Assembly: GCA_963717995.1 (NCBI GenBank)
Contig: CAVQXX010000012.1
Coordinates: 774,371-838,370, forward strand
Origin: an uncultured Bacteroidales bacterium
GTDB taxonomy: Bacteria; Bacteroidota; Bacteroidia; Bacteroidales; UBA10428
DNA length: 64,000 bases
Direction of reading: 5' to 3'
In this document: piece by piece, positions 5,364 through 56,453 of the stretch
Numbering within the stretch: position 1 is the first letter of the stretch
Layout: each line of letters starts with the position of its first letter
Position numbers and translations under genes: made by a program
Notes under the pieces: model-generated
What the model was told of the DNA's origin: nothing
What the model saw: the letters and a program-made list of their open reading frames with translations, nothing else
Databases searched by the model: none

Positions 5364-5374
5364 AAACTACGGCC

Positions 5375-6841
5375 ATGAACATAAAACATAGTGCATTGCA
5401 ACGGAAGGTATTGATTCTTACCTTGATTTCATTTATCATGGTGTCATGCAAAAAAGAAAAGCCCAATGTGGTTTTTATTCTCACCGACCAATGGCGTGCG
5501 TCGGCATTCGGATATACAGGCAACAAAATTGTAAGAACGCCCAATATTGACCGGCTGGCACAGGAATCTGTAAACTTTACCAATGCTGTTTCTGTATGCC
5601 CGGTTTGCACCCCTTACCGGGCTGCACTTCTTACAGGTCGTTATCCTACTTCGACAGGCATGTTTGTGAATGATATTTATCTCCCTTCAGAGGAAGTTTG
5701 CATGGCCGAGATATACCAGCAGGCCGGATATGGCACAGCCTATATTGGCAAGTGGCACCTCGACGGACATGGAAGAGAGGATAATGTTGAACCTGAACGT
5801 CGCCAGGGATTTGAATATTGGAAGGGCCTGGAATGCTCGCATGATTACAACCGGATGCCCTATTATGAAAATGATGACCCTGTAAAAAAATATTGGGAAG
5901 GTTATTCCCCTTTTGCCGAAAGTAAGGATGCCCAACGTTACCTTGAAGAGCATTCAAAAGACAAAAAACCTTTTCTCCTTTTTGTTTCCATGGCTACACC
6001 TCATTTTCCGCATAATTCAGCTCCTCAGGTATATAAGGATATGTATCCCTTACCGGACCTGCAACTGGATCCCAATGTTCCAGATTCACTGAAAGAAATT
6101 GTATTGACTGAATTACAGGGTTATTATGCGCATTGTACAGCAACCGACCAGGCTATCGGGGATTTAATCAACAAGATAAAGTCCCTGGGACTTTCGAAAA
6201 ATACAATCGTAGTATTTACCTCCGATCACGGGGAAATGATGGGTGCGCATGGGCGCCTGCCTTTCCGAAAGCAGCTGGCCTGGGCGGAATCGGCACATAT
6301 TCCGTTTTTGATCAGGTTACCAGGTATGGATAAGGACCAGGCTGCAGGAATCAGTTCACCGCTTACCACTCCGGATATTCTGCCATCGCTATTGGGTTTA
6401 TGCGGTATTAAAATACCAGGAAACATTGAAGGCACTGATCTGTCAGCAATCATTAAAACTCCCTCGACCCAGAAAGACCGTGCAGCCTTATTTATGAGTG
6501 TCTGTCCCTTTGATGTCAATTATCCGGATAAAGAATATCGTGCTATTCGCACAACCCGCTATACCTATGCACGCACTCCTGAAGGACCGTTTATGCTTTT
6601 CGACCATCTGCAGGATCACTGGCAGATGAATAACCTGGCAGATAAGCCCGAAGCATCAGAAATTCAACAGGAACTTGACAACCAGTTAAACAGAGAACTA
6701 TTGAGTATACACGATGAGAATTTTACAACACGTGATGTATATTTGAAGAAATGGGGACTTGAACTGAATAAGGATCATATTATCGAATTTCGGATGATAC
6801 CGGGGCAAAAAAATCCGGTTTACTCCCCAAAACTCCAATAA
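5375..6841 (+). CDS. S1-family sulfatase (Cys-type), lipoprotein
   Basis: Lipobox FIMVSC. PNVVFILTDQ metal-binding start, CTPYRAALLTGRYP (C-x-P-x-R formylglycine motif), GKWHL, FTSDHGE. Confidence 0.9.
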   Translation: MNIKHSALQRKVLILTLISFIMVSCKKEKPNVVFILTDQWRASAFGYTGNKIVRTPNIDRLAQESVNFTNAVSVCPVCTPYRAALLTGRYPTSTGMFVNDIYLPSEEVCMAEIYQQAGYGTAYIGKWHLDGHGREDNVEPERRQGFEYWKGLECSHDYNRMPYYENDDPVKKYWEGYSPFAESKDAQRYLEEHSKDKKPFLLFVSMATPHFPHNSAPQVYKDMYPLPDLQLDPNVPDSLKEIVLTELQGYYAHCTATDQAIGDLINKIKSLGLSKNTIVVFTSDHGEMMGAHGRLPFRKQLAWAESAHIPFLIRLPGMDKDQAAGISSPLTTPDILPSLLGLCGIKIPGNIEGTDLSAIIKTPSTQKDRAALFMSVCPFDVNYPDKEYRAIRTTRYTYARTPEGPFMLFDHLQDHWQMNNLADKPEASEIQQELDNQLNRELLSIHDENFTTRDVYLKKWGLELNKDHIIEFRMIPGQKNPVYSPKLQ

Positions 6842-42091: not shown

Positions 42092-43945
42092 ATGAAAAAA
42101 TCCGGGATTCTTATTTTTGTTTGTATTGCCCTCTCTGCATGCCGTCCTTCATCGAAGGTAACGGATCAGTTTACTCCTTTAAAGCGCCAATTCAATTCAT
42201 TTCACAGGTTATTTTGAAGATTATATTCAGAACTCTATCAGTCATTGGAACAAAGGAGTGGTTCCCTATGCCGGATTTGTTGAAAAATTCAGATCAGGCA
42301 GGGAATTCTTTGCACAGGGTGAGATGTGGGGAAAGGCTATGCGGTCGGGATGCATGTTCTACCGGTATACACAGGATCCTGAACTGAAGAATATCCTTCA
42401 GGCTTCAGTAAATGATCTGCTTAGTACAAAAAGGGAAAATGGCAGTATCAGTTGTTCGCCGGTTTCTCAGCAACCGGATGGCCCGGGAGGAGATCTGTGG
42501 GAACGGAAATATGTTTGCTGGGCCTGGATGAATATTATATGCAGGTGGATCAGGATCCCGAGGTATTGAAGGCCATGATAGATGAGGCGGATTGCCTGGT
42601 CGACCAGATCGGTCCGTCACCCAAAGGTTCCGATAACTGATCAGGGTTGGAGTCCCAATCATATAGAATCAGGCACGTTCTTGAACCGATTATGCGGTTG
42701 TATAATCTTACAAAAGATCAAGGTATCTTGATTTTGCCCGGTATATCGTTGAGGTGGCAGGGGGTGCAAAAGGCTATCAGATTATTGAAGATGCGTACAA
42801 TAATATTGTTCCCGAAAAGATAGGCGGAGTTTATCCGAAGGCCTATGAAATGATGTCCTTGTTTGAAGGACTGGTGGAATACTATCGTGTGACGGGTAAC
42901 GATCATTGGAAGACTGCAGTTTGAAAATCTTTATCATAATATTATAACCCATGAGATCACCCTCATCGGAAACGGAGGAGGAGATCAGCCTTACCATCCT
43001 CCGGTAATGGGGGAGGCATGGGATAATACTGCCCTTGAACAGACAAATCCTGATATGAGCCGGATGATGGAAACCTGTGTTGGCGTTACCTGGCTGAAGT
43101 TTTGCTCCCAGATACTCCGCCTGAACGGAGATCCGCTGGCTGTGGATATGATCGAAAAATATGCCTACAATGGATTGACAGGTGCAATGAAACCTGCCGG
43201 AGACGGCTTCAGCTATGTAAACCTGCTGAATGGTGTAAAAACAAATCCGGAAGGGTGGGGAGGAATTGTAAACGGGGTTTATGTTACCTGCTGCAATTTA
43301 AACGGTCCTATGGGATTGGCTTATTTGCCCTTCGTGGCGGTTATGAATTCCAATAAGGGACCGGTGATAAATCTTTATAATGCGGCTGTGGCAACGGCCC
43401 AGACACCGGAAGGCAAGGATGTTAAACTGGAGATTAAATCGGATTTTCCGTTATCGGGAAAAGTTACGGTACGTGTAACACCACAAAAACCAGGGAAATT
43501 CAGCATCAGGTTAAGGATCCCTTCATGGAGCAAGGATACTATTCTGACAATAAATGGAGAACCGGTGCATGCTTTGGCCGGCACATATGCAGACATAAAC
43601 CGAAAATGGACTTGCGGAGATCAGATTGAGCTATTGCTGGATATGCGATGCCGTGTGATGGATGCACCAAAAGGGAGTAACCGGAAAGGTGATCATTTTC
43701 AGGCCCTGTTAATGGGACCCGTGGTTTTGGCCCGGGACGAAAACATCGATCCTGATTTTAACAAGCCCGTTACGATTATTTCAAAAGATGGTTATGTGGA
43801 TATTAAAAGTGAAACACCCTCCTTAAAACAACAAAAATGCAATTTCTTGTTCCCACAACAGATGGCATGATCCATATGACAGACTATGCTTCGGTAGACA
43901 GTTGGATCGGGAAAAAGGATTTGTACCTGGATTCCTGAAAAATAA
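42092..43945 (+). pseudogene. heavily degraded second GH127 (DUF1680) gene, at least seven frame changes
   Basis: Lipoprotein start MKKSGILIFVCIALSAC. The segments ..NSIHFTGYFEDYIQNSISHWNKGVVPYAGFVEKFR.., ..LLGLDEYYMQVDQDPEVLKAM.., ..KAYEMMSLFEGLVEYYRVTGNDHW.., ..METCVGVTWLKFCSQILRLNGD.. and ..CCNLNGPMGL.. are colinear with 12878..14924 but spread over alternating frames. The 3' end is approximate. Confidence 0.7.
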
Positions 43946-43958
43946 ATAACTCACTACT

Positions 43959-45399
43959 ATGAAACAGTTTGTTTTGGTTTTGGCTTGCATTTTGGCAGCA
44001 TCATGCGGTTTCCGGTCAAAAACAATTTTGTATACCGCTCCTGAATCGGAATTAAAATCAAATGATTTTGAGATGCTTGTCGAGGGCAAACCGGCATTTA
44101 TTTACCAGGCAAGGGTATCAAGGTTACCGGTCAACCAGGTATGGCCCGGATACCAGCGACCATTAAGCCAGACTGAAATTGCCTCATTTGCCTATTTCGA
44201 CCTGAATGGAAAAACGGAAATAGTGATCACTTCACATAAAAAAATCGAAACACTCGACATCAGGCCGAAGGAATATGGCATTATACCTACTGTTGAAGGC
44301 AACACTATTAAATTGACGATATCCAAGCCATGCCAGTTCGTGGTGGAGGTCAATGGTTATCATCATGCCCTGCACATTTTTGCCAATCCGGTAGAAGATT
44401 TCAAAATTGATAAACAGGATCCCAAGGTTCATTATTTCGGTCCGGGTGTTCATGAGGCAGGTGTTATCAGGCTGAACAGCAACGAGACTGTTTTCATCGA
44501 TGGTGGTGCTATTGTTTACGGTGTGATTGTGAGTGAAAACACCCGGAACATAAGAATTACATGGGAGGGGCATACTGGATGCCAGCAAAATTGCCCGCGA
44601 TGAAGCGCCCAATATGATATATCTGAAAAATGTTGTCAATGCGAACATAAGCGGCATTATTCTCCGTGATCCGCATATTTGGACTGTCCTTCCCGGTCTC
44701 TGTGACAGTGTGACAATTGATAATATCAAACTGATCGGATTGTGGCGATACAATTCCGATGGAATTGACATTGTGAACAGCCGGAATGTAACCATCAAAA
44801 ATAGCTTTGTCCGGGCCTTTGATGATAATATTGCAATAAAGGGACTCAATGGAGCTTATGATAAAGAACATAACATCATTGAAAACATTACAGTTGATAA
44901 TTGCGTACTGTGGAATGACTGGGGAAGGCCCATTGAACTTGGCCTGGAGACCGTTGTGGATACAATGAGGAATATTTCATTCACCCATTGCCAGGTACCC
45001 CATTTTACCTGGATTGCCATTGATATTCAGAACGGGGACAGGGGATACGTTAAAAATGTCCGTTTTGAAGATATATGCATTGAGGATCCTATTCTTGACA
45101 GCATTACCATCGGGACCACCCCGATGGATAAAAACGAACTGGGCAAGACCATTGAATTGATCATAAAAGGATTTAACATGTGGACAACTGATACAATCAG
45201 AGGAAATATCAGCAATATTCATTTTAACAATATACGTTATAACAGTACCAATCCCACATTTATTAATTTTGTGGGATATGACAGTACCCACCTCGTTCAA
45301 AATATTTATATCAAAGACTACTTTATAAATGGTAAAAAGGTAACAGACCAGTCCTCTGTCCGGAAGAACGGATTCGTGAAGAATGTTTATCTGGAATAG
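43959..45399 (+). pseudogene. frame-interrupted lipoprotein gene, GH28-like right-handed beta-helix glycosidase
   Basis: Lipobox LAASC. ORFs 43959..44603 and 44614..45399 join if one base near 44562 is skipped (..NIRIT/GRGILDASKIARDE..). YNSDGIDIVNSRNVTIKNSFVRAFDDNIAIKG resembles the GH28 NTDGID / G.DD.IAIK motifs. Confidence 0.5.
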
Positions 45400-45450
45400 G
45401 GACTTAGGACAAGCAGGAATAAATCCCGTAGACAGTATCTATCCTGAAAC

Positions 45451-45554
45451 CCCTAAGCCCCTAAGCCCCTAAGCCCCTAAGCCCCTAAGCCCCTAAGCCC
45501 CTAAGCCCCTAAGCCCCTAAGCCCCTAAGCCCCTAAGCCCCTAAGCCCCTAATC
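45451..45554. repeat. perfect octamer tandem repeat (CCCTAAGC)x12 plus one variant unit; (GGGGCTTA)n on the minus strand
   Basis: Read directly from the sequence. The last (variant) unit CCCTAATC contains the TAG stop codon of the minus-strand gene 45549..46049. Confidence 0.95.
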
Positions 45555-46049
45555 CGTCACCAGATCCAGCTTCAGACTGGTATCCTTGTCAATTCTGAAG
45601 TCATCAGAAGCTGCGGCTACCTTTCCGTTCAGCATATTTACGCTGGCATCAAAACTTAAGGTTCTGGTGTGACCCTGCATAGTGAGCTCGCCTTCAATCT
45701 TATGAGTGAATTTAATATCTCCCTGTTCTGTTCTGGTTACGGGTAATTTGGTTACTTTTTTTATCTCAAACCGGGCTTTGGAATCCTTGTTATTCATAGA
45801 AATGAGATCAATTGTAAATGAGCCGCCTTTAATCTCATTATTATCAAGTACCAATTCCCCGCCTGTGAGTTTTGCAGAGCCAGTGTGTTCTCCGCCAGTT
45901 ATTTCGCCGGTCAGTTGTATTTTGCTATCCACCAAACTGATATTCACTTTATGTTCCGGAGATGAATTTTTCCCGGGCAGTGCAGCTATCGAAACCAGGG
46001 ATATCAGTATTAAAAATCCAGTAACGGAAGCAAGAAATGCTTTTTTCAT
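45549..46049 (-). CDS. YceI-like periplasmic (lipid/polyisoprenoid-binding fold) protein
   Basis: The likely start is MKKAFLASVTGFLILISLVSIAA (ATG at 46049). GELTMQGHTRTLSF resembles the YceI G.LT..GVT motif. Confidence 0.6.
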   Translation of the reverse strand: MKKAFLASVTGFLILISLVSIAALPGKNSSPEHKVNISLVDSKIQLTGEITGGEHTGSAKLTGGELVLDNNEIKGGSFTIDLISMNNKDSKARFEIKKVTKLPVTRTEQGDIKFTHKIEGELTMQGHTRTLSFDASVNMLNGKVAAASDDFRIDKDTSLKLDLVTD

Positions 46050-46102
46050 GTCAATTCCTTTCATTTGTTTAATTAAACATGAGATAAAAACGCACAAAAA
46101 TG

Positions 46103-46122
46103 ATGCCTGTATATGCAGGCAT
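46103..46122 (-). terminator. weak hairpin with T-rich tail between the Trx::TrxR and YceI-like genes
   Basis: The minus strand reads ATGCCTG-catata-CAGGCAT followed by CATTTTTGTGCGTTTTT. Confidence 0.3.
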
Positions 46123-46155
46123 AAATATTTAACAAATTATTAACAAAAGCGCAGC

Positions 46156-47427
46156 CTAATTATCCAGCTCCTTCGTAATATTTATTGCAGCAATTGTCCC
46201 GTCAGCAATGGCTGTTGTGATCTGCCTGTATTTCTTGCTTCTTACATCGCCTACGGCATATATTCCATCCACGCTGGTATGCATATCCTCATCCGTTTTT
46301 ATGTATCCCCAGTTATCAATCTCCAGTTTTCCACCCAACATATCTACGTTAGGTTTTAAACCCACAAATATAAAGACACCGTCGACAGACAGTTCTTTCA
46401 TTTTACCCGATCCCAGATCCTGCACTGTAACAATCATCTTTTCTCCTTTTCGGGTGAAAGATCTGGGTTCATGACGGAACAAAACCTCAACCCGGGGATT
46501 GGCCAGCAATTTTTCCTGGGCTTGTTTATTAGCCTGGAATTTTTCAAATTGATGCACAACCGTTAATTTGGAAGCAAACCGCGTGATAAATTCCGCTTCT
46601 TCAACGGCAGAATTGCCTCCTCCGATGACCATCACTTCTTTATCACCATAATATTTGGCATCGCAGGTGGCACAATAGGATATACCATTTCCTTTAAACT
46701 CCTTTTCCCCGGGAACATTCAGATAATTGGGAGAGGTACCGGTGGCAACTATGATCTTTTTTGCCATGACTGTTTCATACTCATCAATTACAATCTCCTT
46801 TTTCTCAAGGTCAACCCTCGTGACATCAACGGCAACCTTAAATTCGCTTCCGCATTTTTTGGTCTGTTCCGACATGTTATGTGAAAGGAGGTAGCCAGGT
46901 TGCGGTTCAATAAAACCAGGATAATTAGATACCTGGTGTGTGAGACTGACATGTCCGCCGGGCAAACCCGTGTCAATCAATACCGTATTTATGCGTGCCT
47001 GGCAAAGATATAATCCGGCTGTAAGTCCACCCGGTCCGCTGCCGATAATTGCCACATCATAACATGAAGTAAATGGTTTCAGATCTTTTTTCAGCACGGA
47101 TACCCTCTCAGCAGATATCATGGCATTCAGGTTATGCATGATCTCCGAACGTTTGATACCTCCGGACAAGCGGATACCAGTTTCCTTGCCCTTCTCAAAG
47201 AATATCAGGGTGGGTGAACTGAAGACGCCAAGGCGTTCTGCCAGGTCCCGGTTTTTTTGCCTGAATACTTTTACAAACCGGATATCACTGCCATAAATAG
47301 CAGCCAGAGATTCAAACTTGGGAGCCAGTGCTTCACACGGGGGGCATTCATTGGAATAAAAATCGAGGACGACTTTGTCAGCCTGCAATACCTCGGTTTC
47401 GAATTCGGCGGTGGTGATTTCTTTCAT
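46156..47427 (-). CDS. thioredoxin-domain / thioredoxin-reductase fusion protein (Trx N-terminal, TrxR C-terminal)
   Basis: Residues ~1-105 form a Trx fold with C28-P-P-C31. These are followed by YDVAIIGSGPGGLTAGLY (FAD), CATCDAKYY (redox CxxC), VIGGGNSAVEEA (NADPH) and AVGDV. Confidence 0.85.
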   Translation of the reverse strand: MKEITTAEFETEVLQADKVVLDFYSNECPPCEALAPKFESLAAIYGSDIRFVKVFRQKNRDLAERLGVFSSPTLIFFEKGKETGIRLSGGIKRSEIMHNLNAMISAERVSVLKKDLKPFTSCYDVAIIGSGPGGLTAGLYLCQARINTVLIDTGLPGGHVSLTHQVSNYPGFIEPQPGYLLSHNMSEQTKKCGSEFKVAVDVTRVDLEKKEIVIDEYETVMAKKIIVATGTSPNYLNVPGEKEFKGNGISYCATCDAKYYGDKEVMVIGGGNSAVEEAEFITRFASKLTVVHQFEKFQANKQAQEKLLANPRVEVLFRHEPRSFTRKGEKMIVTVQDLGSGKMKELSVDGVFIFVGLKPNVDMLGGKLEIDNWGYIKTDEDMHTSVDGIYAVGDVRSKKYRQITTAIADGTIAAINITKELDN

Positions 47428-47540
47428 AGGATTATTGTTTCTATATTTTGGAATGATATTTTAGTACCGTATGCCCTCCTGGCAAACGGGGAACGGTAAG
47501 TCTATTCTTTTCTACAATACCTAATGCGTTCCGCGCAAAA

Positions 47541-47575
47541 AATCGTAAATCGTAAATCGTAAATCGTAAATCGCA
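47541..47575. repeat. heptamer tandem repeat (AATCGTA)x4 plus one variant (AATCGCA)
   Basis: Read directly from the sequence. It lies 10 nt downstream (minus strand) of the radical SAM stop codon. Confidence 0.9.
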
Positions 47576-47584
47576 AATACACAT

Positions 47585-48904
47585 CTATTCTGTCTCTTCC
47601 TCTATATGCCCGTAAAGGGCAATCCCCAGTTCAAGTAATTCTTTTACCGGCCTGCAATCGGGTGCATGCAGTTCTTTTTCACGGTTGTATGCCACACTGG
47701 CACAACCTCCCCCACATGCCAGCCTCAGGTTGCAATTTGCACATGCCTTGATGGTGAGCACATCGCGTTGTTGCCATTTTTCGATCAATTCGGGGATAAG
47801 TTCCACATGCGGATAAAAGGTGCCCAGTTCTTCTCCAGGTTTTCCCACGGTAGCTGTGCATGAATATATTTTACCTGTGAAGTCAAACGCCCATTCGGTT
47901 TTACACCCTGGACAGGAATCAAAAAGCGGCTCGGGTAATTCGCCGTTCTCAAATAAGAATTTTGAAACGGAATAAGCAGGTTTATGAAATTCCAGAATTT
48001 CGGGATGGCCAAGAATAAGATTATACAGATCTTTGTAAAGGTCGATACGGGAATAAAGCCTTGACTGCTGCGACTGACAATAGTGCAATTCATAATTCCG
48101 CCCCAGTTGGGTTTTAAAATCCGGAGAACTTGTCCATCCCCTGCCGATTGCAAATCCGGCAAGTTCAGGTAATGCATTAATGTTGTCCCTGTCAAGAACT
48201 ACCCGGAGGTTTACCGGTAATCCTGCAGCGAGTGCAGTGTCAATTCCCTTTACGATAGATGAAAATGTTCCGTCTCCGTTCCGGAGGGGTCGGCGCTGGT
48301 TGTGAATGACTTCCGGCCCATCAAGTGTTACCTGTATTTCCCTTATTCTATATGATGAAAGAAGGGGGATATATGATTCAAGATGATAGCCATTTGTAAC
48401 GATGGCCAGATCGAGGTTATTATCTGCACACCCGGTGAGAAAGCGTTCAACGGATTTCCGGTGGTTTATGCCATCCAGCAAGGGTTCTCCGCCAAACAAG
48501 GTGACATATTTGCGTCGGTTTTGAAAATGCTCCCTGATGTATCGAAAAAATGCCCTGGTAATTTCAGGTTCATTTTCCCTGCCATTTTGCATATATCCGT
48601 CCTGATAGCAATAGGAACAGTTGAAATTGCAGGTATAGGACGGAACATAGAAAAGCTGGATCTCATCATTTTCACGGGCATCCAGAAAATCAAGATATTT
48701 CAGGCGAAATTGCCTGTCCTCTTCCTTTCGGTCAACTACATATCCTTTGTCAATATATGCTTGGTCAGCAATTACTTCCTTCGCAAGAAAGCGTTTTGCT
48801 TCGGAAGGAGTAAGAATATCCGCATTTCCTGACAGGATATTGACAATAAAATATTCTTCAGAATGATGAATTGCAGAAAAAATATTGTGTTGGGATAATT
48901 CCAT
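47585..48904 (-). CDS. radical SAM enzyme with C-terminal SPASM domain and ~90-aa N-terminal extension (peptide-maturase architecture)
   Basis: C92-NFN-C96-SY-C99 (CX3CX2C), TLFGGEPLL. SPASM signature C..GKIYSC ... CANCNLRLACGGGC ... DC. Confidence 0.9.
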   Translation of the reverse strand: MELSQHNIFSAIHHSEEYFIVNILSGNADILTPSEAKRFLAKEVIADQAYIDKGYVVDRKEEDRQFRLKYLDFLDARENDEIQLFYVPSYTCNFNCSYCYQDGYMQNGRENEPEITRAFFRYIREHFQNRRKYVTLFGGEPLLDGINHRKSVERFLTGCADNNLDLAIVTNGYHLESYIPLLSSYRIREIQVTLDGPEVIHNQRRPLRNGDGTFSSIVKGIDTALAAGLPVNLRVVLDRDNINALPELAGFAIGRGWTSSPDFKTQLGRNYELHYCQSQQSRLYSRIDLYKDLYNLILGHPEILEFHKPAYSVSKFLFENGELPEPLFDSCPGCKTEWAFDFTGKIYSCTATVGKPGEELGTFYPHVELIPELIEKWQQRDVLTIKACANCNLRLACGGGCASVAYNREKELHAPDCRPVKELLELGIALYGHIEEETE

Positions 48905-48910
48905 AATGTT

Positions 48911-48939
48911 TGACAGGTGATTATTAATATCACTTGTCA
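48911..48939 (-). promoter_or_regulatory. hairpin between the small ORF and the radical SAM gene (possible attenuator or processing site)
   Basis: The minus strand reads TGACAAGTGAT-attaata-ATCACCTGTCA (11-bp stem, one A/C mismatch) in the 55-nt spacer. Confidence 0.4.
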
Positions 48940-48959
48940 GTTATTGGAGCCAATAATAT

Positions 48960-49058
48960 TTAGTCGTGGCAGCCTGCAACAATTTTAGAGTTCTTGGCAC
49001 AACATTGTGCAACTTTCTTTTTTGATACCTGGTTTTTCTTTTTGGTTAAAGATTTCAT
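48960..49058 (-). CDS. unannotated 32-aa Cys-containing small ORF (candidate precursor or substrate peptide)
   Basis: Hand translation gives MKSLTKKKNQVSKKKVAQCCAKNSKIVAGCHD*. The ATG lies 14 nt after the methyltransferase stop, and the TAA lies 55 nt before the radical SAM start, on the same strand. Confidence 0.45.
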   Translation of the reverse strand: MKSLTKKKNQVSKKKVAQCCAKNSKIVAGCHD

Positions 49059-49072
49059 AAGATCATCAATTT

Positions 49073-49732
49073 TTAAGAACAACAACAATTACCTTCTTTC
49101 ATTCCGAAAATGGTAAAGCTTGCTACTTCTGCCTTACCTTTTGTATAGGGTTCGCTTTCTTCAAGTACTTCAATACTGTCAAAACCTGCATTAACCAGTG
49201 TTTTCATATATTCATCCCGGGTTACTGAACCAGCCCAGCATTCTGAAACGGCTACCGGATCATTCTTATATTCCTCAGGAACAGGAGAAGTGGCATAAAT
49301 ATCACTTACTACAAATCTACCTCCTTTTTTCAGAATTCGATACACTTCATTCCAAACTTTTTGCTTATCAGAGATATGATTTATTGTACAATTGGAGATT
49401 ACCAGGTCGGCTACATTATCATCCAGGTTGATGGTTTCAAGATCGGAATGGATAAAATTCACATTGGCAATGCCCAGTTTGGCAGCATTAGTCCTGGCTT
49501 TCCCAAGCATGCCTTCCGAGACATCCACACCAATGGCAAATCCGTTTTCACCCACTTCTTCAGCCATGCGCAAAACATCCGTTCCCCTTCCACTGCCCAG
49601 GTCAACACAAAACTCACCCTGTTTAGGCTTCCCGAATTTGCTGGCACCTCCACAAGAAAGACAACAGGAATCTTCAGCCAGGGCTGAATAACGGAAGTTA
49701 ATCGAAGAAGTATCCATATTGAAATTTGACAC
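49073..49732 (-). CDS. short ArsM-like (arsenite-methyltransferase-type) class I SAM methyltransferase with Cys-rich termini
   Basis: SCCLSCGG (C23,C24,C27), VDLGSGRGTDV (motif I), VISNC115, SEC165 (the same 50-residue spacing as the As(III)-binding Cys pair of ArsM). The protein ends in ..GNCCCS and is only 219 aa. The start is GTG at 49732 or ATG at 49717. Confidence 0.7.
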   Translation of the reverse strand: MSNFNMDTSSINFRYSALAEDSCCLSCGGASKFGKPKQGEFCVDLGSGRGTDVLRMAEEVGENGFAIGVDVSEGMLGKARTNAAKLGIANVNFIHSDLETINLDDNVADLVISNCTINHISDKQKVWNEVYRILKKGGRFVVSDIYATSPVPEEYKNDPVAVSECWAGSVTRDEYMKTLVNAGFDSIEVLEESEPYTKGKAEVASFTIFGMKEGNCCCS

Positions 49733-49797
49733 AAATATATAAAAATCTAAATATGTATATACGAATATTTTATTTAGAATGTTTCCAAATTAACGGA

Positions 49798-51153
49798 TTA
49801 GAAGGTCATGGTAAACACCGTTTCAACCTCGGGTTCGGAATGGGCGGAGATAGTTCCATTATGCAGGCGCATGATCTGTTTGGACAGGCTCAATCCGATT
49901 CCGGAGCCGGAGGGTTTTGTGGTGAAAAAGGGAATGAAAATTTTGTCAAGCACATCTTTAAGAATACCGGTACCGTTGTCGATTACCTGCAGGGTGACCC
50001 GCCCCCTCTTGTTCGTAAAGCCAAGTAACTGTATTTTCCCGCCTGGACGGCCAATAAGGGCATGCAGCGAGTTCTTCAGCAGGTTGATCAGCACCTGTTC
50101 AATCAGTTGATCGTCAGCTGTAAACTCAAGATCGGCAGGTTCCACGCTAACTATAAACTCAAATCCGTGCCGCTTGATTTCTTCCTCCATCAGTTTTTCA
50201 ATGTTTGTAAAAAGCTCCTTCACAGAGCATTGTATGAAATTGGGCTTGGGTATCCGTGTGAGATTCCGGTATGTGTTTACAAAGTGTAAAAGGCCCGTAC
50301 TTCGCTTATTAATGGTTTGAAGCGCCTCCTGAATTTCTGAAACTGATTCCTTATCAATATGGAGTTCTTCACCGTTTCCTTCAGCCACCATGCCTTTAAG
50401 CATCAGATCGAGTGTGGATGACAGGGAGGCAATGGGGGTGATTGAATTCATGATTTCATGGGTCAGAACCCGGATAAGCTTCTGCCAGGCTTCTGTTTCC
50501 TGTTCTTCAAGCACATTCTGGATATCCTTTATGGTTACAAGATAAATGAGCTTGTCCTTTACCTTGATGGTGGACGCATAAATTGCGAGCTGCAGGATAT
50601 CATCATCGTATTGTACTTTCACCAGCTTGTTTTCCCCCGGCTTGATCCCAAGCAAGGTTGCAACAAGTTCCGGGCTAAGACTTTCAAGTGACTTGATATT
50701 TTTTATACTGGCCAGCTGAAACAGCTTTTTGGCCGTTTTATTGATCAGTTCTATGTTCCCGTCCCCGCTGTATGCAATGACACTTACATCAATATTCTGA
50801 ACGATGGTTTGCAGGTAATGAAAACTCTCTTCCTTTTCCGCCCTAACTTTCTGGAAATCTTGCATTACTTCATTAAATGCCCTGTTCAGCTCATTAAATG
50901 TGCCGCCCATGCTTTCTATCTGAAATGATCTTGTAAACTCCGAAAACCGTATTGATTCAAGAAAGCTGGTCAGTTCCCGGTTCGTTTTATCCAGGTACCT
51001 GATTAATGAAGCGATTTCAAATATGACAGCCACTGTCACTATGACAGGGACAATGAAGTACTTTGATTGTATAAAATAGGCAATCAGGCCAATTGACACG
51101 GCCAAAACGATGACGCGGAATATGATATTTAATCTGTAATTTTTAAAACCCAT
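49798..51153 (-). CDS. membrane sensor histidine kinase (NtrB/AtoS-like)
   Basis: Two N-terminal TM segments, H-box LTHEIMNSITPI, HATPase G-box GSGIGLSLSKQI. It overlaps the upstream regulator gene by 11 nt. Confidence 0.85.
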   Translation of the reverse strand: MGFKNYRLNIIFRVIVLAVSIGLIAYFIQSKYFIVPVIVTVAVIFEIASLIRYLDKTNRELTSFLESIRFSEFTRSFQIESMGGTFNELNRAFNEVMQDFQKVRAEKEESFHYLQTIVQNIDVSVIAYSGDGNIELINKTAKKLFQLASIKNIKSLESLSPELVATLLGIKPGENKLVKVQYDDDILQLAIYASTIKVKDKLIYLVTIKDIQNVLEEQETEAWQKLIRVLTHEIMNSITPIASLSSTLDLMLKGMVAEGNGEELHIDKESVSEIQEALQTINKRSTGLLHFVNTYRNLTRIPKPNFIQCSVKELFTNIEKLMEEEIKRHGFEFIVSVEPADLEFTADDQLIEQVLINLLKNSLHALIGRPGGKIQLLGFTNKRGRVTLQVIDNGTGILKDVLDKIFIPFFTTKPSGSGIGLSLSKQIMRLHNGTISAHSEPEVETVFTMTF

Positions 51154-52528
51154 ATTTTTCCATCCTCCGGTACAACGACGTTCTGGTTAGTCCAAGTTCC
51201 TGAGCTGCCTGGGAGATGTTGCCCTGATTTTGTTTCATTACCTTTTCAATAACCCTTCTTTCAATTTCATCGAGGTTAAAGGTGTCAAACTCCAGGTCAC
51301 CTGATTTTTTGCGGGGGGTGGATAAGATAAAATCCTCGGGTTCAAGAGATGGTGTTTCAGTCATGATCACAGCCCGTTCGATGGCATGCTGCAATTCCCT
51401 TACATTCCCGGGCCATCCGTAATGCATCAGTTTTTTGTAGGCAGCAGCAGTAATACCGCGTAAGGATTTTCTGTATTTTTTTGAATAGATCTTCAGGAAA
51501 TGGGTAGATAGTAATTCAATATCGTCCCCTCTGTCACGAAGAGGCGGGAGATGAACCTCCACTGTATTGATACGGTACAGTAAGTCCTGACGGAACAGGT
51601 TAGTGCTTACGGATTCATACAAGTCACTGTTCGTTGCGCAGATGAGCCTGACATCAACAGCAACCGGTCGGTTTGCACCCACGCGGGTTACTTCGTGCCT
51701 TTCAATCACGGTGAGTATTTTCGATTGCATGGCAAGTGGCAGATTTCCGATTTCATCAAGAAACAGTGTGCCCCTGGATGCAATCTCAAACCGTCCCGGT
51801 TTTTCTTTTTTGGCGTCGGTAAAAGCCCCTTTTTCATGTCCAAACAGTTCACTTTCAAACAGGGTATCGCTCAATGATCCAAGGTCGACACTGATAAAAA
51901 CTTCATCACGGCGCGGAGAATTGCGGTGCAGCGCCCGCGCAACCAATTCCTTTCCTGTTCCGTTCTCGCCCAGGATCAGGACGTTGGCATCGGTCTGGGC
52001 AACTTTTTTGATCGTGGTGAATACTTCCTGCATTTTAGTGGAATTGCCAATAAAATCAACGAATGGCTGATCCATGACGGCACTGATTTCCTTCTGCTTG
52101 GCTCGCAGTTCATTGGCTTCAAGTCGCGACCTCCTCAGTTTAATGGATGAAGAAATTGTGGCAAGTAATTTCTCGTTTTGCCACGGTTTCAGCACAAAAT
52201 CCGTAGCCCCTGATTTAATGGCCTTGACTGCCCTTTCTGCATCACCATATGCCGTAATGAATACAACTACAGCCTGGGAATCTATTTCAAGTATCCTGCC
52301 AAGCCAGTCAAATCCTTCCTGGCCACTGATCGCATCCTTGTTGAAATTCATGTCCAGCAGGATCATGTCGAAATATTCCTTTGTCAGGATCTCGGGAAGC
52401 TTTTCCGGATTATTCAACGTGGTAAGTTTCTCCACGTGGGGTTTTAACAGCAATTTTAACGCGAATAATATATCTTCGTTATCATCAACTGCCAGAATAT
52501 TGCCAATTTTTTCACTCATGGGTTGCAT
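51143..52528 (-). CDS. sigma54-dependent response regulator (NtrC family)
   Basis: Receiver domain (ILAVDDNEDI..MILLDMNF), AAA+ GENGTGKELVARALH, ESELFGHEKGAFTDA (GAFTGA-type loop), C-terminal HTH AAQELGLTRTSLYRRMEKYG. Confidence 0.9.
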   Translation of the reverse strand: MQPMSEKIGNILAVDDNEDILFALKLLLKPHVEKLTTLNNPEKLPEILTKEYFDMILLDMNFNKDAISGQEGFDWLGRILEIDSQAVVVFITAYGDAERAVKAIKSGATDFVLKPWQNEKLLATISSSIKLRRSRLEANELRAKQKEISAVMDQPFVDFIGNSTKMQEVFTTIKKVAQTDANVLILGENGTGKELVARALHRNSPRRDEVFISVDLGSLSDTLFESELFGHEKGAFTDAKKEKPGRFEIASRGTLFLDEIGNLPLAMQSKILTVIERHEVTRVGANRPVAVDVRLICATNSDLYESVSTNLFRQDLLYRINTVEVHLPPLRDRGDDIELLSTHFLKIYSKKYRKSLRGITAAAYKKLMHYGWPGNVRELQHAIERAVIMTETPSLEPEDFILSTPRKKSGDLEFDTFNLDEIERRVIEKVMKQNQGNISQAAQELGLTRTSLYRRMEKYGF

Positions 52529-52763
52529 GGATTTACATTGTATAACAAATGTAGATAATTACTTTGAAAATCGGACGGACTACAAACGCTTTCTGTTAGC
52601 AAGTTTTAACCTGATAGAAAGTGTCCGGTTCCGTACTGATTGTGTTTCATTTTTGTACATAATATCTGGAATATATTATTCGAAATATTTAACAAATATC
52701 CTGATTTTAAGTAGTATATTAATAATGGCATAATTAATGTTAAATTTATATAGCATTTAATTT

Positions 52764-54056
52764 TTGATTCAAAGATATATCATTGCATTTATGGACGGAA
52801 TGGATCGCAAAATCGAACAAAAAGGACTGAAGAAAAAACATATTTGGATTGGAATTGGCGGCTTGATTTTCATTTTAGTCATTTTACAGCTCATATTCGG
52901 AGACAAAAGTTCAAAACTCAATGTAGAACAGGATAAAATAGCCATTGGGGATGTAATTGCAGATAAGTACCAGGATTATATTTCAGTGAACGGAACGGTT
53001 GAACCCATCAAAACGGTTTATCTTGATGCCGTTGAATCGGGCAGGGTAGAGGAAAAGCTTATAGAAGAGGGAACGCGGGTGAAAAAGGGTGACGTGATTC
53101 TTAAACTCAGCAATGATAATCTGTTGCTCGATATATCAGGTAATGAAGCAGATGTTGCCAGGGCTGTGAATGATCTGAAAAGTGCCAGGACCGGTCTTGA
53201 AAATCAGAATCTGCAAACCCTTTCCACCATTCTGCAACTAAAATATTCCCTTAAGAAACTGGAAAGACAATATCAGAATAACCAAAAACTGATCGCGCAG
53301 AATCTGATTTCCAAAGAAGAATTTGAATATTCAAAGGAACAATTCGAAGAGACAAGTATGCAATTGGAGTTACAGAAACAAAAATATGAACGTGATTCCA
53401 TCTATACCAGAACTCGTATTGCCGCCGACCAGTCTTCAATTGAACGGATGCAGAAGAACCTGGTTCTAACACAGCACCGGTTGGATAATCTCGATATAAA
53501 AGCTCCTGTTGACGGTGAACTGGCAATGCTTAATCCTGAGATAGGAGAGGTGATCAGTTATGGATCACGGATCGGTACAATCAATATTCTCGATTCCTAT
53601 AAAATGCATGTGCTTATTGATGAACATTATATAACAAGGATATCACGCGGCCTGCCGGCAGATTTCGATTTTGCCGGTGAAAAGAACACCATGAAAATTG
53701 TTAAAATTTATCCCGAGGTCAGCAATGGTACTTTTGCTGTCGACATGCAATTTACAAGCGAAATACCTACCCAGATCAGGATCGGCCAGACGGCACGTAT
53801 TCACCTGGAACTGGGTGAATCGGAAGATGCACTTTTGCTTCCGAAAGGAGGCTTTTATCAAAGCACCGGAGGACAGTGGGTATTCGTGGTGGATAAGTCC
53901 GGTGATTTCGCTTACCGCCGTAAAATCCGACTGGGCCGTCAGAACCCGAGGTATTACGAAGTACTGGAAGGTCTCGCAAAAGGTGAACAAGTAATCATCT
54001 CGGATTATGAAAATTTTGGTGATGCTGATAAACTGATTCTTAAAAATAATAATTAG
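52764..54056 (+). CDS. membrane-fusion (HlyD/MacA-type periplasmic adaptor) protein
   Basis: N-terminal TM segment IWIGIGGLIFILVILQLIF, long coiled-coil segment, beta-barrel C-terminus. The likely ATG lies a few codons inside the tracked ORF. Confidence 0.8.
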   Translation: MIQRYIIAFMDGMDRKIEQKGLKKKHIWIGIGGLIFILVILQLIFGDKSSKLNVEQDKIAIGDVIADKYQDYISVNGTVEPIKTVYLDAVESGRVEEKLIEEGTRVKKGDVILKLSNDNLLLDISGNEADVARAVNDLKSARTGLENQNLQTLSTILQLKYSLKKLERQYQNNQKLIAQNLISKEEFEYSKEQFEETSMQLELQKQKYERDSIYTRTRIAADQSSIERMQKNLVLTQHRLDNLDIKAPVDGELAMLNPEIGEVISYGSRIGTINILDSYKMHVLIDEHYITRISRGLPADFDFAGEKNTMKIVKIYPEVSNGTFAVDMQFTSEIPTQIRIGQTARIHLELGESEDALLLPKGGFYQSTGGQWVFVVDKSGDFAYRRKIRLGRQNPRYYEVLEGLAKGEQVIISDYENFGDADKLILKNNN

Positions 54057-54084
54057 GTAGTATTAACACAAAAACCTCCCCCTT

Positions 54085-54768
54085 ATGATTAAAACAATTG
54101 ACCTTGTAAAAGTATTCCGCACAGATGAAGTGGAAACCACAGCTCTCAACAAAGTAAATATCACCGTTGAAAAAGGTGAATTTGTAGCCATCATGGGTCC
54201 TTCCGGTTGCGGTAAATCTACCCTGCTGAATATCCTTGGTTTGCTCGATACTCCAACTGGCGGCCAATACGTTTTTAACGGTGAAGAGGTGGCAAAGTAT
54301 AAAGAAAAACAAAGGACCAATCTCAGAAAAGGAAATATTGGTTTCGTTTTTCAGAGTTTCAATCTTATTGATGAACTTACCGTGTATGAAAACGTAGAAC
54401 TGCCCTTGTTGTATTTGAAGGTTTCATCCGGCGACAGACGCAAGAAGGTGAATGATGTGCTTGAAAGGATGAAAATTTCACATCGCAAAAAACATTTTCC
54501 CCAGCAGTTATCAGGTGGTCAGCAACAACGCGTGGCTATTGCCAGGGCCGTTGTAACAAGGCCTCAGCTAATACTTGCGGATGAGCCCACTGGCAATCTT
54601 GATTCAGCCAATGGTGAAGAGGTAATGAACCTGCTCACTGAATTAAATAATGAAGGCACTACAATCATCATGGTAACTCACTCACCCTCGGATGCTGACA
54701 AGGCTCACCGCATTGTTCAGTTGTTCGATGGTCATATTGTTACAGAAAACATCAGGCAAATACTATAA
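54085..54768 (+). CDS. ABC transporter ATP-binding protein (MacB/LolD-type)
   Basis: Walker A GPSGCGKSTLLN, signature LSGGQQQRVAIARA, Walker B ILADEPTGNLD. Confidence 0.9.
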   Translation: MIKTIDLVKVFRTDEVETTALNKVNITVEKGEFVAIMGPSGCGKSTLLNILGLLDTPTGGQYVFNGEEVAKYKEKQRTNLRKGNIGFVFQSFNLIDELTVYENVELPLLYLKVSSGDRRKKVNDVLERMKISHRKKHFPQQLSGGQQQRVAIARAVVTRPQLILADEPTGNLDSANGEEVMNLLTELNNEGTTIIMVTHSPSDADKAHRIVQLFDGHIVTENIRQIL

Positions 54769-54779
54769 ATTGAAAAGCC

Positions 54780-55076
54780 ATGAAAGAGATCTGTATTCCT
54801 ATACCCTATCTGAAAGATAATGATGTAGCTGAAGTAGAGGTAGTTGTTGCTGGCAAAAAAATCAAATACGACTTCAGGGTAGAATCCTTCCCCTGGGAAG
54901 TGGAAAATGAGTTTTCATACCTCGCTGATCCGCTCGAACGATCTTTGGCACGGATTTACAAGCTAAAAAATGCTATCGAAGGATACAGCAAGGACTGGGA
55001 ACTGATTCAGATTTTTAATCCCAATGAAAATGCAGATCATATTCATGTATTATACCGAAAAAAGTTAAAAACATAA
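54780..55076 (+). CDS. 98-aa hypothetical soluble protein at the position where FtsX-type permease genes are normally found
   Basis: Intact ORF tightly packed between the ATPase and TolC-like genes. No TM segment is visible and I do not recognise a family. Confidence 0.45.
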   Translation: MKEICIPIPYLKDNDVAEVEVVVAGKKIKYDFRVESFPWEVENEFSYLADPLERSLARIYKLKNAIEGYSKDWELIQIFNPNENADHIHVLYRKKLKT

Positions 55077-55097
55077 TTCCATTATTTTAAATACACT

Positions 55098-56453
55098 ATG
55101 AACCCCATGAAAAAAGCTATCCTGTTTTTGTGCTTTCTGTCAACCCTGGGTCTTGCACCCGTTAAAGCACAAAAAGTCTGGTCGTTGGAGGAATGTATCA
55201 GTTATGCTCTCGAAAACAACCTGCAGATCAAACGGCAGGAAGGTAATGTAGAGTATAATAAAAACAATATGAACCAGAGTTATTACAACATGTTGCCAAA
55301 TGCCAACGGCCAGATCAACCAGGGCTGGAATTCAGGGCAAACATTTGACTATTTTTCGAGTCAGTATACAAACCAGAATTACTGGTCCAGTAATTGGGGT
55401 CTCAATAGTAATATATTACTTTTCAATGGATTCCAGACCTGGAATAACATTGCAAGGTCCAAATATAACTTTTTGAAGAGCCAATCAGATCTGGATAAAT
55501 CAAAGAATGATATTTCCACCCAGCTGGCCCTTGGGTATCTCCAGGTATTGTTTACCATGGAACTTCTTGATGTGGCAAAAAGCAAGCTTGAAGTGACATC
55601 ACTGCAAGCCGAGAGAACCCGCAAAATGCTTGAAGTGGGTAATGTTGCCCAGGGTGAATTTTTGCAGATAAAGGCGCAGGAATCAAATGACAAAACAGCC
55701 CTCATCAATGCTCAGAACAACCTGGAAATCGCCTATCTGAATCTCACCCAGATGCTCGATCTTGATTCCGTGAAGGGTTTTGAAATTGTTATACCTGAGA
55801 ATATTGAAGTTGAGATGCTTTCGCCGGTAGCTTCAGTGCAGGATATATTTACCGTCGCACTGACCACAATGCCTCAAATTAAAAGCGCTGAATATTCCCT
55901 TAAAAGTGCTGAAAAGGAACTTAGCATGTCGTGGGGACAGCTCAGTCCGACTTTTAACCTGAACGGAGGGCTCAATACTTTCTATTCGCAGATTGCTCCT
56001 GATCCGTTGAATCCCGAAGCAGGCGCACCGGCTTTCAATAAGCAGTTTAAGACCAATTTCAATAAACAGGTCGGCCTTGGTGTCTCTATACCTCTTTTTA
56101 ACCGGATGCAGGTGAAAACCAGTATCAGTAATTCGAGACTGCAGGTATCTGACTTTAAAATCCAGCTCGACCAGGCGAAACTTGCCCTTTATAAAGAAGT
56201 GCAGCAGGCACAGGCAGATGCGACCGCCGCGCAGGAAAAATATTATTCCAGCGTTGATGCGGTAAAGTACAACGAGGAAGCTTTCAAGTATACAAGCCAG
56301 AAACTTGAAGTGGGACTGGTGAATTCGGTGGATTATAATGTTGCGCAGAATAATTTAATTAGTGCTACATCATCCATGTTGCAGGCCAAATATGAGTATA
56401 TATTTAAGCTGAAAATCCTTGATCTTTATATGGGAAAACCAATTGTGTTGTAA
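55098..56453 (+). CDS. TolC-family outer-membrane efflux protein
   Basis: Signal peptide. LEECISYALENNLQIK start and two repeated coiled/barrel halves typical of OEP/TolC proteins. Confidence 0.85.
   Translation: MNPMKKAILFLCFLSTLGLAPVKAQKVWSLEECISYALENNLQIKRQEGNVEYNKNNMNQSYYNMLPNANGQINQGWNSGQTFDYFSSQYTNQNYWSSNWGLNSNILLFNGFQTWNNIARSKYNFLKSQSDLDKSKNDISTQLALGYLQVLFTMELLDVAKSKLEVTSLQAERTRKMLEVGNVAQGEFLQIKAQESNDKTALINAQNNLEIAYLNLTQMLDLDSVKGFEIVIPENIEVEMLSPVASVQDIFTVALTTMPQIKSAEYSLKSAEKELSMSWGQLSPTFNLNGGLNTFYSQIAPDPLNPEAGAPAFNKQFKTNFNKQVGLGVSIPLFNRMQVKTSISNSRLQVSDFKIQLDQAKLALYKEVQQAQADATAAQEKYYSSVDAVKYNEEAFKYTSQKLEVGLVNSVDYNVAQNNLISATSSMLQAKYEYIFKLKILDLYMGKPIVL

Follow-up and report, generated by a model that had tools for sequence, protein, structure and literature searches.

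A 32-codon open reading frame (ORF) lies on the minus strand at positions 48960-49058 of a 64,000-nucleotide stretch of DNA (hereafter, the window) from an uncultured Bacteroidales bacterium (GenBank assembly GCA_963717995.1, contig CAVQXX010000012.1, positions 774,371 to 838,370). Judging from its conservation across related genomes, this ORF is a true gene that is maintained by purifying selection, and the 16-residue, three-cysteine tail that it encodes follows a pattern common to bacteria of at least five phyla. With a probability of roughly two in three, we believe that the gene is translated into the precursor or substrate peptide of the adjoining CteB-like radical S-adenosylmethionine (rSAM)/SPASM enzyme, as part of a self-contained cassette of four genes that also encodes an ArsM-like methyltransferase and a thioredoxin-thioredoxin reductase (Trx-TrxR) fusion.

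Conservation of the small ORF and selection acting on it

The ORF reads as the original prediction had described it, with seven lysines among the first 15 residues of the peptide, a vicinal cysteine pair, and a GCHD end. Short ORFs are common in this DNA (132 ORFs of at least 20 residues overlap positions 44000-54000), so one more of them is unremarkable by itself, and the case for a peptide gene therefore rests on comparative evidence. We scanned one genome per species for relatives of the rSAM enzyme, obtained 545 stretches, and analyzed the best 80 of them (56-94% identity). These loci belong to Bacteroidota (33), Spirochaetota including Brevinematales (18), Ignavibacteriota (12), and Myxococcota or "delta proteobacteria" (12), with one each from Elusimicrobia, Syntrophomonadaceae, and Chitinivibrionales, and two that are unclassified. 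Of the 80 loci, 77 carry, immediately ahead of the rSAM gene, exactly one ORF that ends in AQCCAK-x-S-x4-GCHD-stop. Two of the other contigs (L061 and L070) are truncated on that side, which leaves 78 loci with upstream sequence, and among these only L039, a full-length locus from Ignavibacteriales, is without the peptide ORF; it is missing the methyltransferase gene too. This agrees with the original prediction, which had regarded the ORF as a bona fide small gene located where the precursor of an rSAM/SPASM maturase is canonically encoded.

The nucleotide sequences behind this conserved peptide have diverged widely. The last 17 codons occur in 74 distinct nucleotide versions with 11 residues invariant, and the core uses all four alanine codons, both cysteine codons, serine codons of the TCN and AGY types, and all three stop codons. 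In frame, the proportion of synonymous differences (pS) in the core is 0.85, which is saturated, and that of nonsynonymous differences (pN) is 0.134 (pN/pS of 0.16), whereas the two shifted frames yield pN/pS ratios of 2.06 and 1.27. Codons 2-8 of the leader are constrained as well (pN of 0.275, pS of 0.85). In addition, the peptide begins with M/V-K-S-L, the start codon being GTG in seven loci, and 44 of 75 loci have an AGGAGG-type Shine-Dalgarno sequence ahead of the ATG or GTG. Nearly all of the remaining 31, in which no such site was scored, belong to Bacteroidota, which do not depend on Shine-Dalgarno sites, and their leaders are A/T-rich. Thus, the comparison with orthologous loci that the original prediction had proposed found the ORF intact and evolving in a protein-like manner, with its start codons and Shine-Dalgarno sites.

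The abundance of short ORFs and the presence of a stem-loop adjoining this one could be taken to mean that the ORF arose by chance, or that an RNA or DNA element underlies the conservation. Such explanations are difficult to reconcile with saturated synonymous sites alongside 11 invariant residues, with the coding of serine by both TCN and AGY, with pN/pS ratios above 1 in the shifted frames, and with the retention of the start codon and Shine-Dalgarno sequence. Because the presence of the peptide, the pattern of selection, and the translation signals point the same way, we consider a chance or RNA-element origin to be excluded for practical purposes.

A profile search with the peptide among 5.8 billion protein clusters uncovered 1472 clusters. 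The best 120 of these 1472 all end in AQCCAK.S....GCHD, are unnamed or labeled "hypothetical protein", and contain no Pfam domain. The exact peptide of the window is already present in public gene calls, as a "hypothetical protein" only, and its comparison with the Pfam and NCBIfam models revealed no match, even at E <= 10. A 437-residue protein (P0250) that falls into the peptide's 90% cluster was considered as a natural peptide fusion and rejected, since it is an unrelated multi-pass membrane protein placed there by a clustering artifact.

Anatomy of the peptide

Alignment of the homologues gives a consensus that consists of a head, M-K-S-L-(I/T/V)-(K/R)-K-K, a variable linker, and the 16-residue tail. 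The linker is rich in lysine and varies in both sequence and length, so that the whole peptide comprises 30-43 residues; the leader has a median length of 15 residues, with six lysines and arginines. The invariant residue types of the core are limited to C-H-D, CC, K, S, A, Q, and G, the cysteine spacing is CC-x10-C, and the C-terminus is a free aspartate in every homologue. The original prediction had likened two spacings in the core, C-x-D and C-x2-N, to the donor/acceptor pairs that are cross-linked in ranthipeptides. The former, present as C-H-D, is indeed invariant, whereas the latter is not kept, with N, T, V, I, L, H, or Q occurring at the acceptor position.

In some Myxococcota peptides (L028, L035, L043, L062, L064, and L065), the leader is extended and contains a further CC(A/E/T)P located ~10 residues before AQCCAK, which brings the total number of cysteines to five (e.g., QQCCEPAADQKVAQCCAK).

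The rSAM/SPASM enzyme

The rSAM site of the enzyme encoded next to the peptide, CX3CX2C, is formed by C92, C96, and C99. Beyond this site, the enzyme displays a SPASM arrangement of eight or nine conserved cysteines (C276, C331, C349, C388-x2-C391-x5-C397-x3-C401, and C417), as needed for two auxiliary clusters; 71 or more of the 72 homologues retain these cysteines. Among the NCBIfam models, the best matches are without exception maturases for cysteine-rich peptides, namely, CefB (144 bits against a cut-off of 600), TIGR04463 (118 against 525), Clo7bot (109 against 600), PapB (93 against 340), and the SCIFF maturase (76 against 425); DynA scores 96 bits.

The closest solved structure by sequence is CteB, and the same result was obtained at the level of fold. 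More specifically, the AlphaFold2 model of the enzyme (predicted local distance difference test [pLDDT] of 89.3) was compared with solved structures using Foldseek, and CteB (PDB 5why/5wgg) ranked first, over the full length and with an E value of 7e-19, followed by SuiB, anSME, and ChlB. The alignments to CteB and SuiB, both of which bear a RiPP recognition element (RRE; RiPP, ribosomally synthesized and posttranslationally modified peptide), are full length. In the model, the N-terminal domain consists of three strands and a helix (beta3-alpha), which is the RRE type, at a pLDDT of around 95. The enzyme therefore appears to carry a leader-binding-type (RRE-like) domain, as far as the predicted structure can tell. 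Across phyla, the rSAM enzymes are 56-60% identical, a level that is unusually high for the maturase of an antibiotic-type RiPP and typical of cofactor pathways.

The ArsM-like methyltransferase

Alignment of the methyltransferase to the CmArsM structures (4fr0 and 4kw7) matches its C27, C115, and C165 with C72, C174, and C224 of CmArsM, which we take to be the As(III) ligands of the ArsM structural literature. These three residues are kept in 64-65 of 69 methyltransferase homologues. C23, C24, and C42 are conserved too, and most homologues end in a cysteine-rich C-terminal tail; the cysteine clusters that had been pointed out at both ends of the protein in the window are present as C23/C24/C27 and C216-218. 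C23 and C24 sit 3-4 residues ahead of C27, and the alignment to CmArsM begins only at C72, whose disulfide partner in that enzyme is the fourth catalytic cysteine, C44. The DLGSGxG motif for S-adenosylmethionine (SAM) is invariant.

The methyltransferase model (pLDDT of 85.8) has ArsM/AS3MT structures as its top 13 Foldseek matches, with template modeling (TM) scores, normalized to the query, of 0.73-0.79, and eight of these superpose with a root mean square deviation of 2.5-2.8 Å over ~200 columns. The C-terminal domain of ArsM is absent, and the protein scores below the NCBIfam ArsM cut-off (NF008823, 190 bits against 263). Public names of the homologues are inconsistent and include arsenite methyltransferase, UbiE, and methyltransferase domain protein.

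Conservation of the four-gene cassette

We mapped the loci by tblastn with the proteins of the window and found that the order methyltransferase, peptide, rSAM enzyme, Trx-TrxR is kept in ~75 of the 80 loci, across all phyla (i.e., Bacteroidota, Ignavibacteriota, Spirochaetota, Myxococcota, Elusimicrobia, and Firmicutes). In four loci (L026, L033, L040, and L045), the Trx-TrxR gene has been relocated upstream of the methyltransferase gene and is still linked. Clustering of all ORFs in the 80 loci revealed no further gene that occurs in more than 23 of them. In the cultured Spirochaeta isovalerica (GCA_014207565.1), as well as on long metagenomic contigs, the four genes lie amid unrelated housekeeping genes.

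In L039 (positions 3604-6308), a gene for a transporter of the major facilitator superfamily type precedes the rSAM and Trx-TrxR genes, and the methyltransferase and peptide genes may sit elsewhere in that genome.

Proposed function and alternatives

In our best reading, which draws on the gene set as a whole, the cassette marks an undescribed modified-peptide system, RiPP-like and of housekeeping character. We propose that the cassette would be transcribed from its own promoter, with a stem-loop lifting the peptide message over the enzyme messages. The MKSLxKKK head of the lysine-rich leader would then dock on the RRE-like domain of the rSAM enzyme, as the predicted fold suggests, and the enzyme would abstract a hydrogen atom from AQCCAKxSxxxxGCHD and introduce at least one cross-link. 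Judging by CteB and PapB, the most probable link would be a thioether from an invariant cysteine to an invariant acceptor such as the C-terminal aspartate. The methyltransferase and Trx-TrxR may act on the same peptide, with methylation of the peptide itself or of a thiophilic atom held by its cysteines, and with the thiols being kept reduced. Given that the core does not vary between phyla and that the cassette has no conserved protease or exporter, its product probably stays inside the cell with its leader attached, where it would play a physiological role of the SCIFF or cofactor kind rather than that of an antibiotic. Such a conserved intracellular role is suggested by the combination of an invariant core, a maturase with 56-60% identity, and the lack of an exporter, all of which resemble SCIFF and cofactor RiPPs.

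Several points weigh against a peptide substrate that is matured in this manner. The modification of the peptide is, at every step, something that we infer. Since the rSAM enzyme scores far under every curated NCBIfam maturase cut-off, the type of reaction cannot be transferred to it by homology. The core of a RiPP is usually the variable part; here, the core is invariant and the linker variable, which fits a cofactor, a carrier, or a small functional protein no less than a cross-linked RiPP. No peptidase or exporter recurs across the 80 loci and the Pfam-annotated contexts. L039 has the rSAM and TrxR genes with no methyltransferase or peptide gene nearby, and two loci (L001 and L049) lack Trx-TrxR, so that the reductase must be dispensable or supplied in trans. 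Finally, the presence of the As(III)-ligand cysteines in at least 64 of the 69 methyltransferase homologues points to a metalloid rather than a peptide as the substrate of that enzyme.

This last point leads to an alternative that we regard as unlikely, namely, that the peptide handles metalloids. Its three cysteines would form an S3 site for As(III), Sb(III), Se, or Te, the ArsM-like enzyme would methylate the bound atom, Trx-TrxR would re-reduce the catalytic disulfide as happens with ArsM, and the rSAM enzyme would shape the chelating peptide or forge a carbon-metalloid bond; the peptide would then serve the anaerobic methylation of metalloids as a carrier or scaffold, or provide the backbone of a product that contains arsenic. 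The match of C27, C115, and C165 to the CmArsM ligands, their retention in nearly all homologues, mostly together with a cysteine-rich tail, and the ArsM/AS3MT identity of the top 13 structural matches are all consistent with this idea. Moreover, ArsM needs a reductant in vitro, which Trx-TrxR would supply here, and the pairing of ArsM with an rSAM enzyme has precedents in the biosynthesis of arsenosugars (ArsS) and arsinothricin (ArsL). However, none of arsR, arsC, acr3, arsB, arsA, or arsD recurs in the 80 loci or the Pfam-annotated contexts, and the regulators that do recur are of the MarR type or, in Bacteroidales only, a sigma-54 two-component pair. The methyltransferase falls short of the ArsM cut-off, the rSAM enzyme is built as a peptide maturase and not as ArsS or ArsL, and the very many anaerobes that carry the cassette have no obvious link with sites rich in arsenic. 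A plain precursor and a metalloid carrier overlap to some extent, given that the peptide could be both modified and metalloid-binding. In a bolder form, which we consider doubtful, the CC...C motif would chelate As(III) or a related thiophilic metalloid, ArsM would methylate it, Trx-TrxR would recycle the disulfide, and the rSAM enzyme would couple a carbon radical of the peptide with the metalloid or with the thiolates that bind it. If this is true, Bacteroidota, Spirochaetota, Ignavibacteriota, and Myxococcota would produce a ribosomal peptide that contains arsenic, the first of its kind, or else a peptide cofactor dedicated to methylating metalloids under anaerobic conditions.

It is similarly improbable, in our estimation, that the peptide is the precursor of a cofactor or other small molecule, as PqqA and MftA are, in which GCHD, perhaps together with CC, is cross-linked by the rSAM enzyme, methylated, and either excised by a housekeeping peptidase, to yield a small molecule that is redox active or binds metal, or put to use without leaving the peptide. 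The invariant C-terminus with its free terminal aspartate would suit this role, as would the cross-phylum identity of the rSAM enzyme, the single copy, the linked redox enzymes, and the lack of immunity or export genes, but there is no conserved peptidase or extra tailoring enzyme, no dependent oxidoreductase family adjoins the cassette, and a conserved block of 16 residues exceeds what known cofactor precursors need. We see even less reason to regard the peptide as a stand-alone small cysteine protein (e.g., a thiol buffer, metallochaperone, or methyltransferase regulator) that escapes the rSAM enzyme, with the latter acting on another substrate such as the cysteine-rich tail of the methyltransferase. 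The invariance of the core, the occurrence of such tails on most methyltransferase homologues, and the existence of an rSAM-TrxR locus with no peptide nearby could be cited in its favor. Yet the peptide gene is directly upstream of the rSAM gene in all but one of the loci with upstream sequence, the rSAM enzyme bears a leader-binding-type domain, and the N-terminal MKSLxKKK, apart from the core, looks like a recognition sequence, which together make this explanation very improbable.

Comparison with known systems

The cassette falls short of the cut-off of every curated family with which it was compared. Among known systems, it most resembles that of SCIFF and CteB (Tte1186; a ranthipeptide; PDB 5wgg/5why), in which a short cysteine-containing peptide is likewise encoded directly upstream of an RRE-rSAM-SPASM gene, and CteB is the closest solved structure both by sequence and by fold. 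SCIFF peptides are strongly conserved throughout a large taxon, lack a protease or exporter of their own, and have no established physiological role. However, the present peptide has three cysteines in 31-32 residues, whereas SCIFF has six in ~45; the two share no sequence similarity, with no match to the NCBIfam SCIFF model even at E <= 10, and the rSAM enzyme reaches 76 bits where 425 would be required. SCIFF loci have no ArsM-like methyltransferase and Trx-TrxR partners, and SCIFF occurs in Clostridia, while the present family is found in several Gram-negative phyla.

PapB, which makes the Cys-X3-Asp thioethers of freyrasin, is also an rSAM/SPASM enzyme that acts on Cys/Asp motifs, and the present peptide has an invariant Cys-His-Asp end. 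It differs in its score (93 bits against the cut-off of 340), in having a single C-x-D instead of repeated C-X3-D, and in the invariance of the core. The best curated match of the rSAM enzyme, full length over residues 1-431, is the CefA/CefB "Cys-every-fifth" family (NF038107); both that system and the present one are, to our knowledge, uncharacterized and would act on cysteine-rich peptides, but the score (144 bits against 600) is low and the peptide has no cysteine at every fifth residue. Mycofactocin (MftA/MftC) and pyrroloquinoline quinone (PqqA/PqqE) resemble the cassette in having a small peptide with invariant C-terminal residues, cross-phylum conservation, and no immunity genes, as well as in RRE-type recognition by an rSAM/SPASM enzyme and an intracellular role, both of which are predicted for the cassette. 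By contrast, the present cassette has no peptidase, flavoenzyme, or glycosyltransferase partner and encodes a cysteine-rich core; the MftC model gives 61 bits, and PqqE ranks 33rd by Foldseek.

With respect to arsenic metabolism, ArsM/ArsS and ArsM/ArsL also combine an ArsM-type enzyme with As(III)-ligand cysteines, a neighboring rSAM gene, and a thioredoxin system at hand. They differ in that the rSAM enzyme here is an RRE-SPASM maturase, that a ribosomal peptide gene lies between the two, and that the methyltransferase models of those pathways score below their cut-offs (NF038099, 77 against 400; NF040538, 106 against 500). The As(III) metallochaperone ArsD uses a Cys12-Cys13-Cys18 site, i.e., a vicinal cysteine pair plus a third cysteine can bind As(III), and the peptide contains such a trio as well. 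However, ArsD is a folded protein of ~120 residues, whereas the peptide has 32 residues with a CC-x10-C spacing, no family match, and no arsA partner.

On the basis of gene content, the partners of the peptide gene differ from those of every described ranthipeptide, sactipeptide, or cofactor system, and we class the combination of an rSAM/SPASM-associated cysteine peptide with an ArsM-like enzyme and a thioredoxin system as an unprecedented set. No description of the peptide or cassette was found in full-text literature, including by its peptide motifs, although subscription journals were largely outside reach and a prior account is possible. The family is widespread, with no fewer than 1472 peptide clusters and with the rSAM enzyme encoded in 545 species-level genomes, and no protein-family model or curated maturase family covers it. 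Collectively, the invariant core, the lack of a protease or exporter, the ArsM-type ligand cysteines, and the thioredoxin system favor a conserved role inside the cells of anaerobes over that of an antibiotic. The cassette thus offers an entry into two questions, i.e., what purpose "housekeeping" rSAM-modified cysteine peptides such as SCIFF serve, and whether the ArsM-like enzymes of anaerobes act on substrates presented by a peptide. S. isovalerica, as a cultured carrier, makes the system tractable.

Organization of the locus in the window

The coordinates of the cassette and adjoining features are listed in Table 1. The ATG of the peptide ORF lies 14 nucleotides (nt) past the methyltransferase stop (49073), and 55 nt separate the peptide stop from the rSAM start (48904). 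The ORF list begins the methyltransferase at a GTG at 49732 (219 residues), whereas its homologues and an exact public entry of 214 residues indicate the ATG at 49717.

Table 1. Features of the peptide cassette and its surroundings in the window
Feature	Position	Strand	Remarks
Putative precursor/substrate peptide gene, 32 codons, encoding MKSLTKKKNQVSKKKVAQCCAKNSKIVAGCHD	48960..49058	minus	ATG...TAA; stop TAA at 48960-48962
Leader part, 16 residues: M-K-S-L-x-K-K-K head and lysine-rich variable linker	49011..49058	minus	From alignment
C-terminal core, 16 residues: A-Q-C-C-A-K-x-S-x4-G-C-H-D	48963..49010	minus	From alignment; eleven invariant residues
Two stem-loops in the peptide-rSAM spacer, the larger being TGACAAGTGAT-loop-ATCACCTGTCA	48911..48956	minus	From RNA folding
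rSAM/SPASM enzyme, 439 residues: N-terminal RRE-like domain, CX3CX2C, full SPASM cysteine set	47585..48904	minus	
Compact ArsM-like SAM methyltransferase, 214 residues from ATG 49717, cysteine-rich C-terminal tail	49073..49717	minus	
Trx-TrxR fusion, CPPC in the thioredoxin part and CATC in the reductase part	46156..47427	minus	
YceI-like protein gene	45549..46097	minus	

Upstream of the methyltransferase gene, the minus strand encodes a histidine kinase and a sigma-54 response regulator, which face a divergent operon for HlyD, an ABC ATPase, and an outer-membrane efflux protein (OEP) on the plus strand (52764-56453; the whole region spans 49798-56453). The two-component pair is 80-100% identical in the Bacteroidales loci L001-L019 and has no counterpart at the cassettes of other phyla; together with the YceI gene, it accompanies the cassette only in closely related Bacteroidales, and it was therefore rejected as a cassette component. 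The HlyD/ABC/OEP operon is likewise near the cassette in the clade of the window and not in other phyla, and the two-component pair probably serves this efflux operon and not the peptide cassette. In L001, the closest relative of the window (rSAM enzyme 94% identical), the YceI gene directly follows the rSAM gene.

Outside Bacteroidota, a MarR-type gene is located directly upstream of, and co-directional with, the methyltransferase gene in 12 loci, at about -1300 from the rSAM start (L021, L024, L032, L038, L042, L047, L048, L053-L056, and L077), and its product is a candidate regulator of the cassette. A gene for a cysteine-rich DUF1847 protein is found inside or directly after the cassette in eight loci, next to the end of the rSAM or the reductase gene, either at +1300 to +1900 (L029, L063, and L078) or at +2640 to +3360 (L025, L031, L038, L053, and L074) from the rSAM start, as well as nearby in four more, and may represent an optional fifth component.

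Expression signals and repeats

RNA folding of the 55-nt spacer in the window gave -12.7 kcal/mol (z = -4.3 relative to shuffled sequences). Folding of this spacer in 67 loci revealed a stem-loop with z < -2 after the peptide stop in 47 of them, often followed by a U-run, and in the nearest Bacteroidales, the peptide-rSAM spacer measures just 4-14 nt. In RiPP operons, a stem-loop after the precursor gene commonly raises the level of precursor mRNA over that of the enzyme mRNA, and the stem-loop observed here would be expected to act as an attenuator or stabilizer. For the peptide gene, a generic scan of the window uncovered neither a sigma-70 promoter nor an intrinsic terminator that was convincing. 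Upstream of the methyltransferase gene, sites resembling the sigma-54 promoter (TGGCAC-N5-TTGC) did not exceed chance, with none in the 49733-49797 spacer, and the sequence TATATTTG at 49732-49739 resembles the -7 box of Bacteroidota.

Simple repeats occur in two of the spacers of the window. A heptamer array (AAATCGT, 5.6 copies) at 47540-47578 comes right after the rSAM stop, within the 157-nt spacer that precedes the Trx-TrxR gene, and a perfect tandem array of CCCCTAAG (12.9 copies) at 45450-45552 occupies the spacer between a GH28-like ORF and the YceI-like gene. In two Bacteroidales loci (L013 and L018), similar simple repeats are located in spacers upstream of the peptide gene. Beyond the YceI-like gene, positions 43007-45399 probably contain remnants of glycoside hydrolase (GH) genes. 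The match of a GH127 fragment (43007-43870) is confined to the middle domain and the end of the catalytic domain, and the GH28-like gene is split into two adjoining ORFs (43959-44603 and 44614-45399), pointing to a frameshift or pseudogene.

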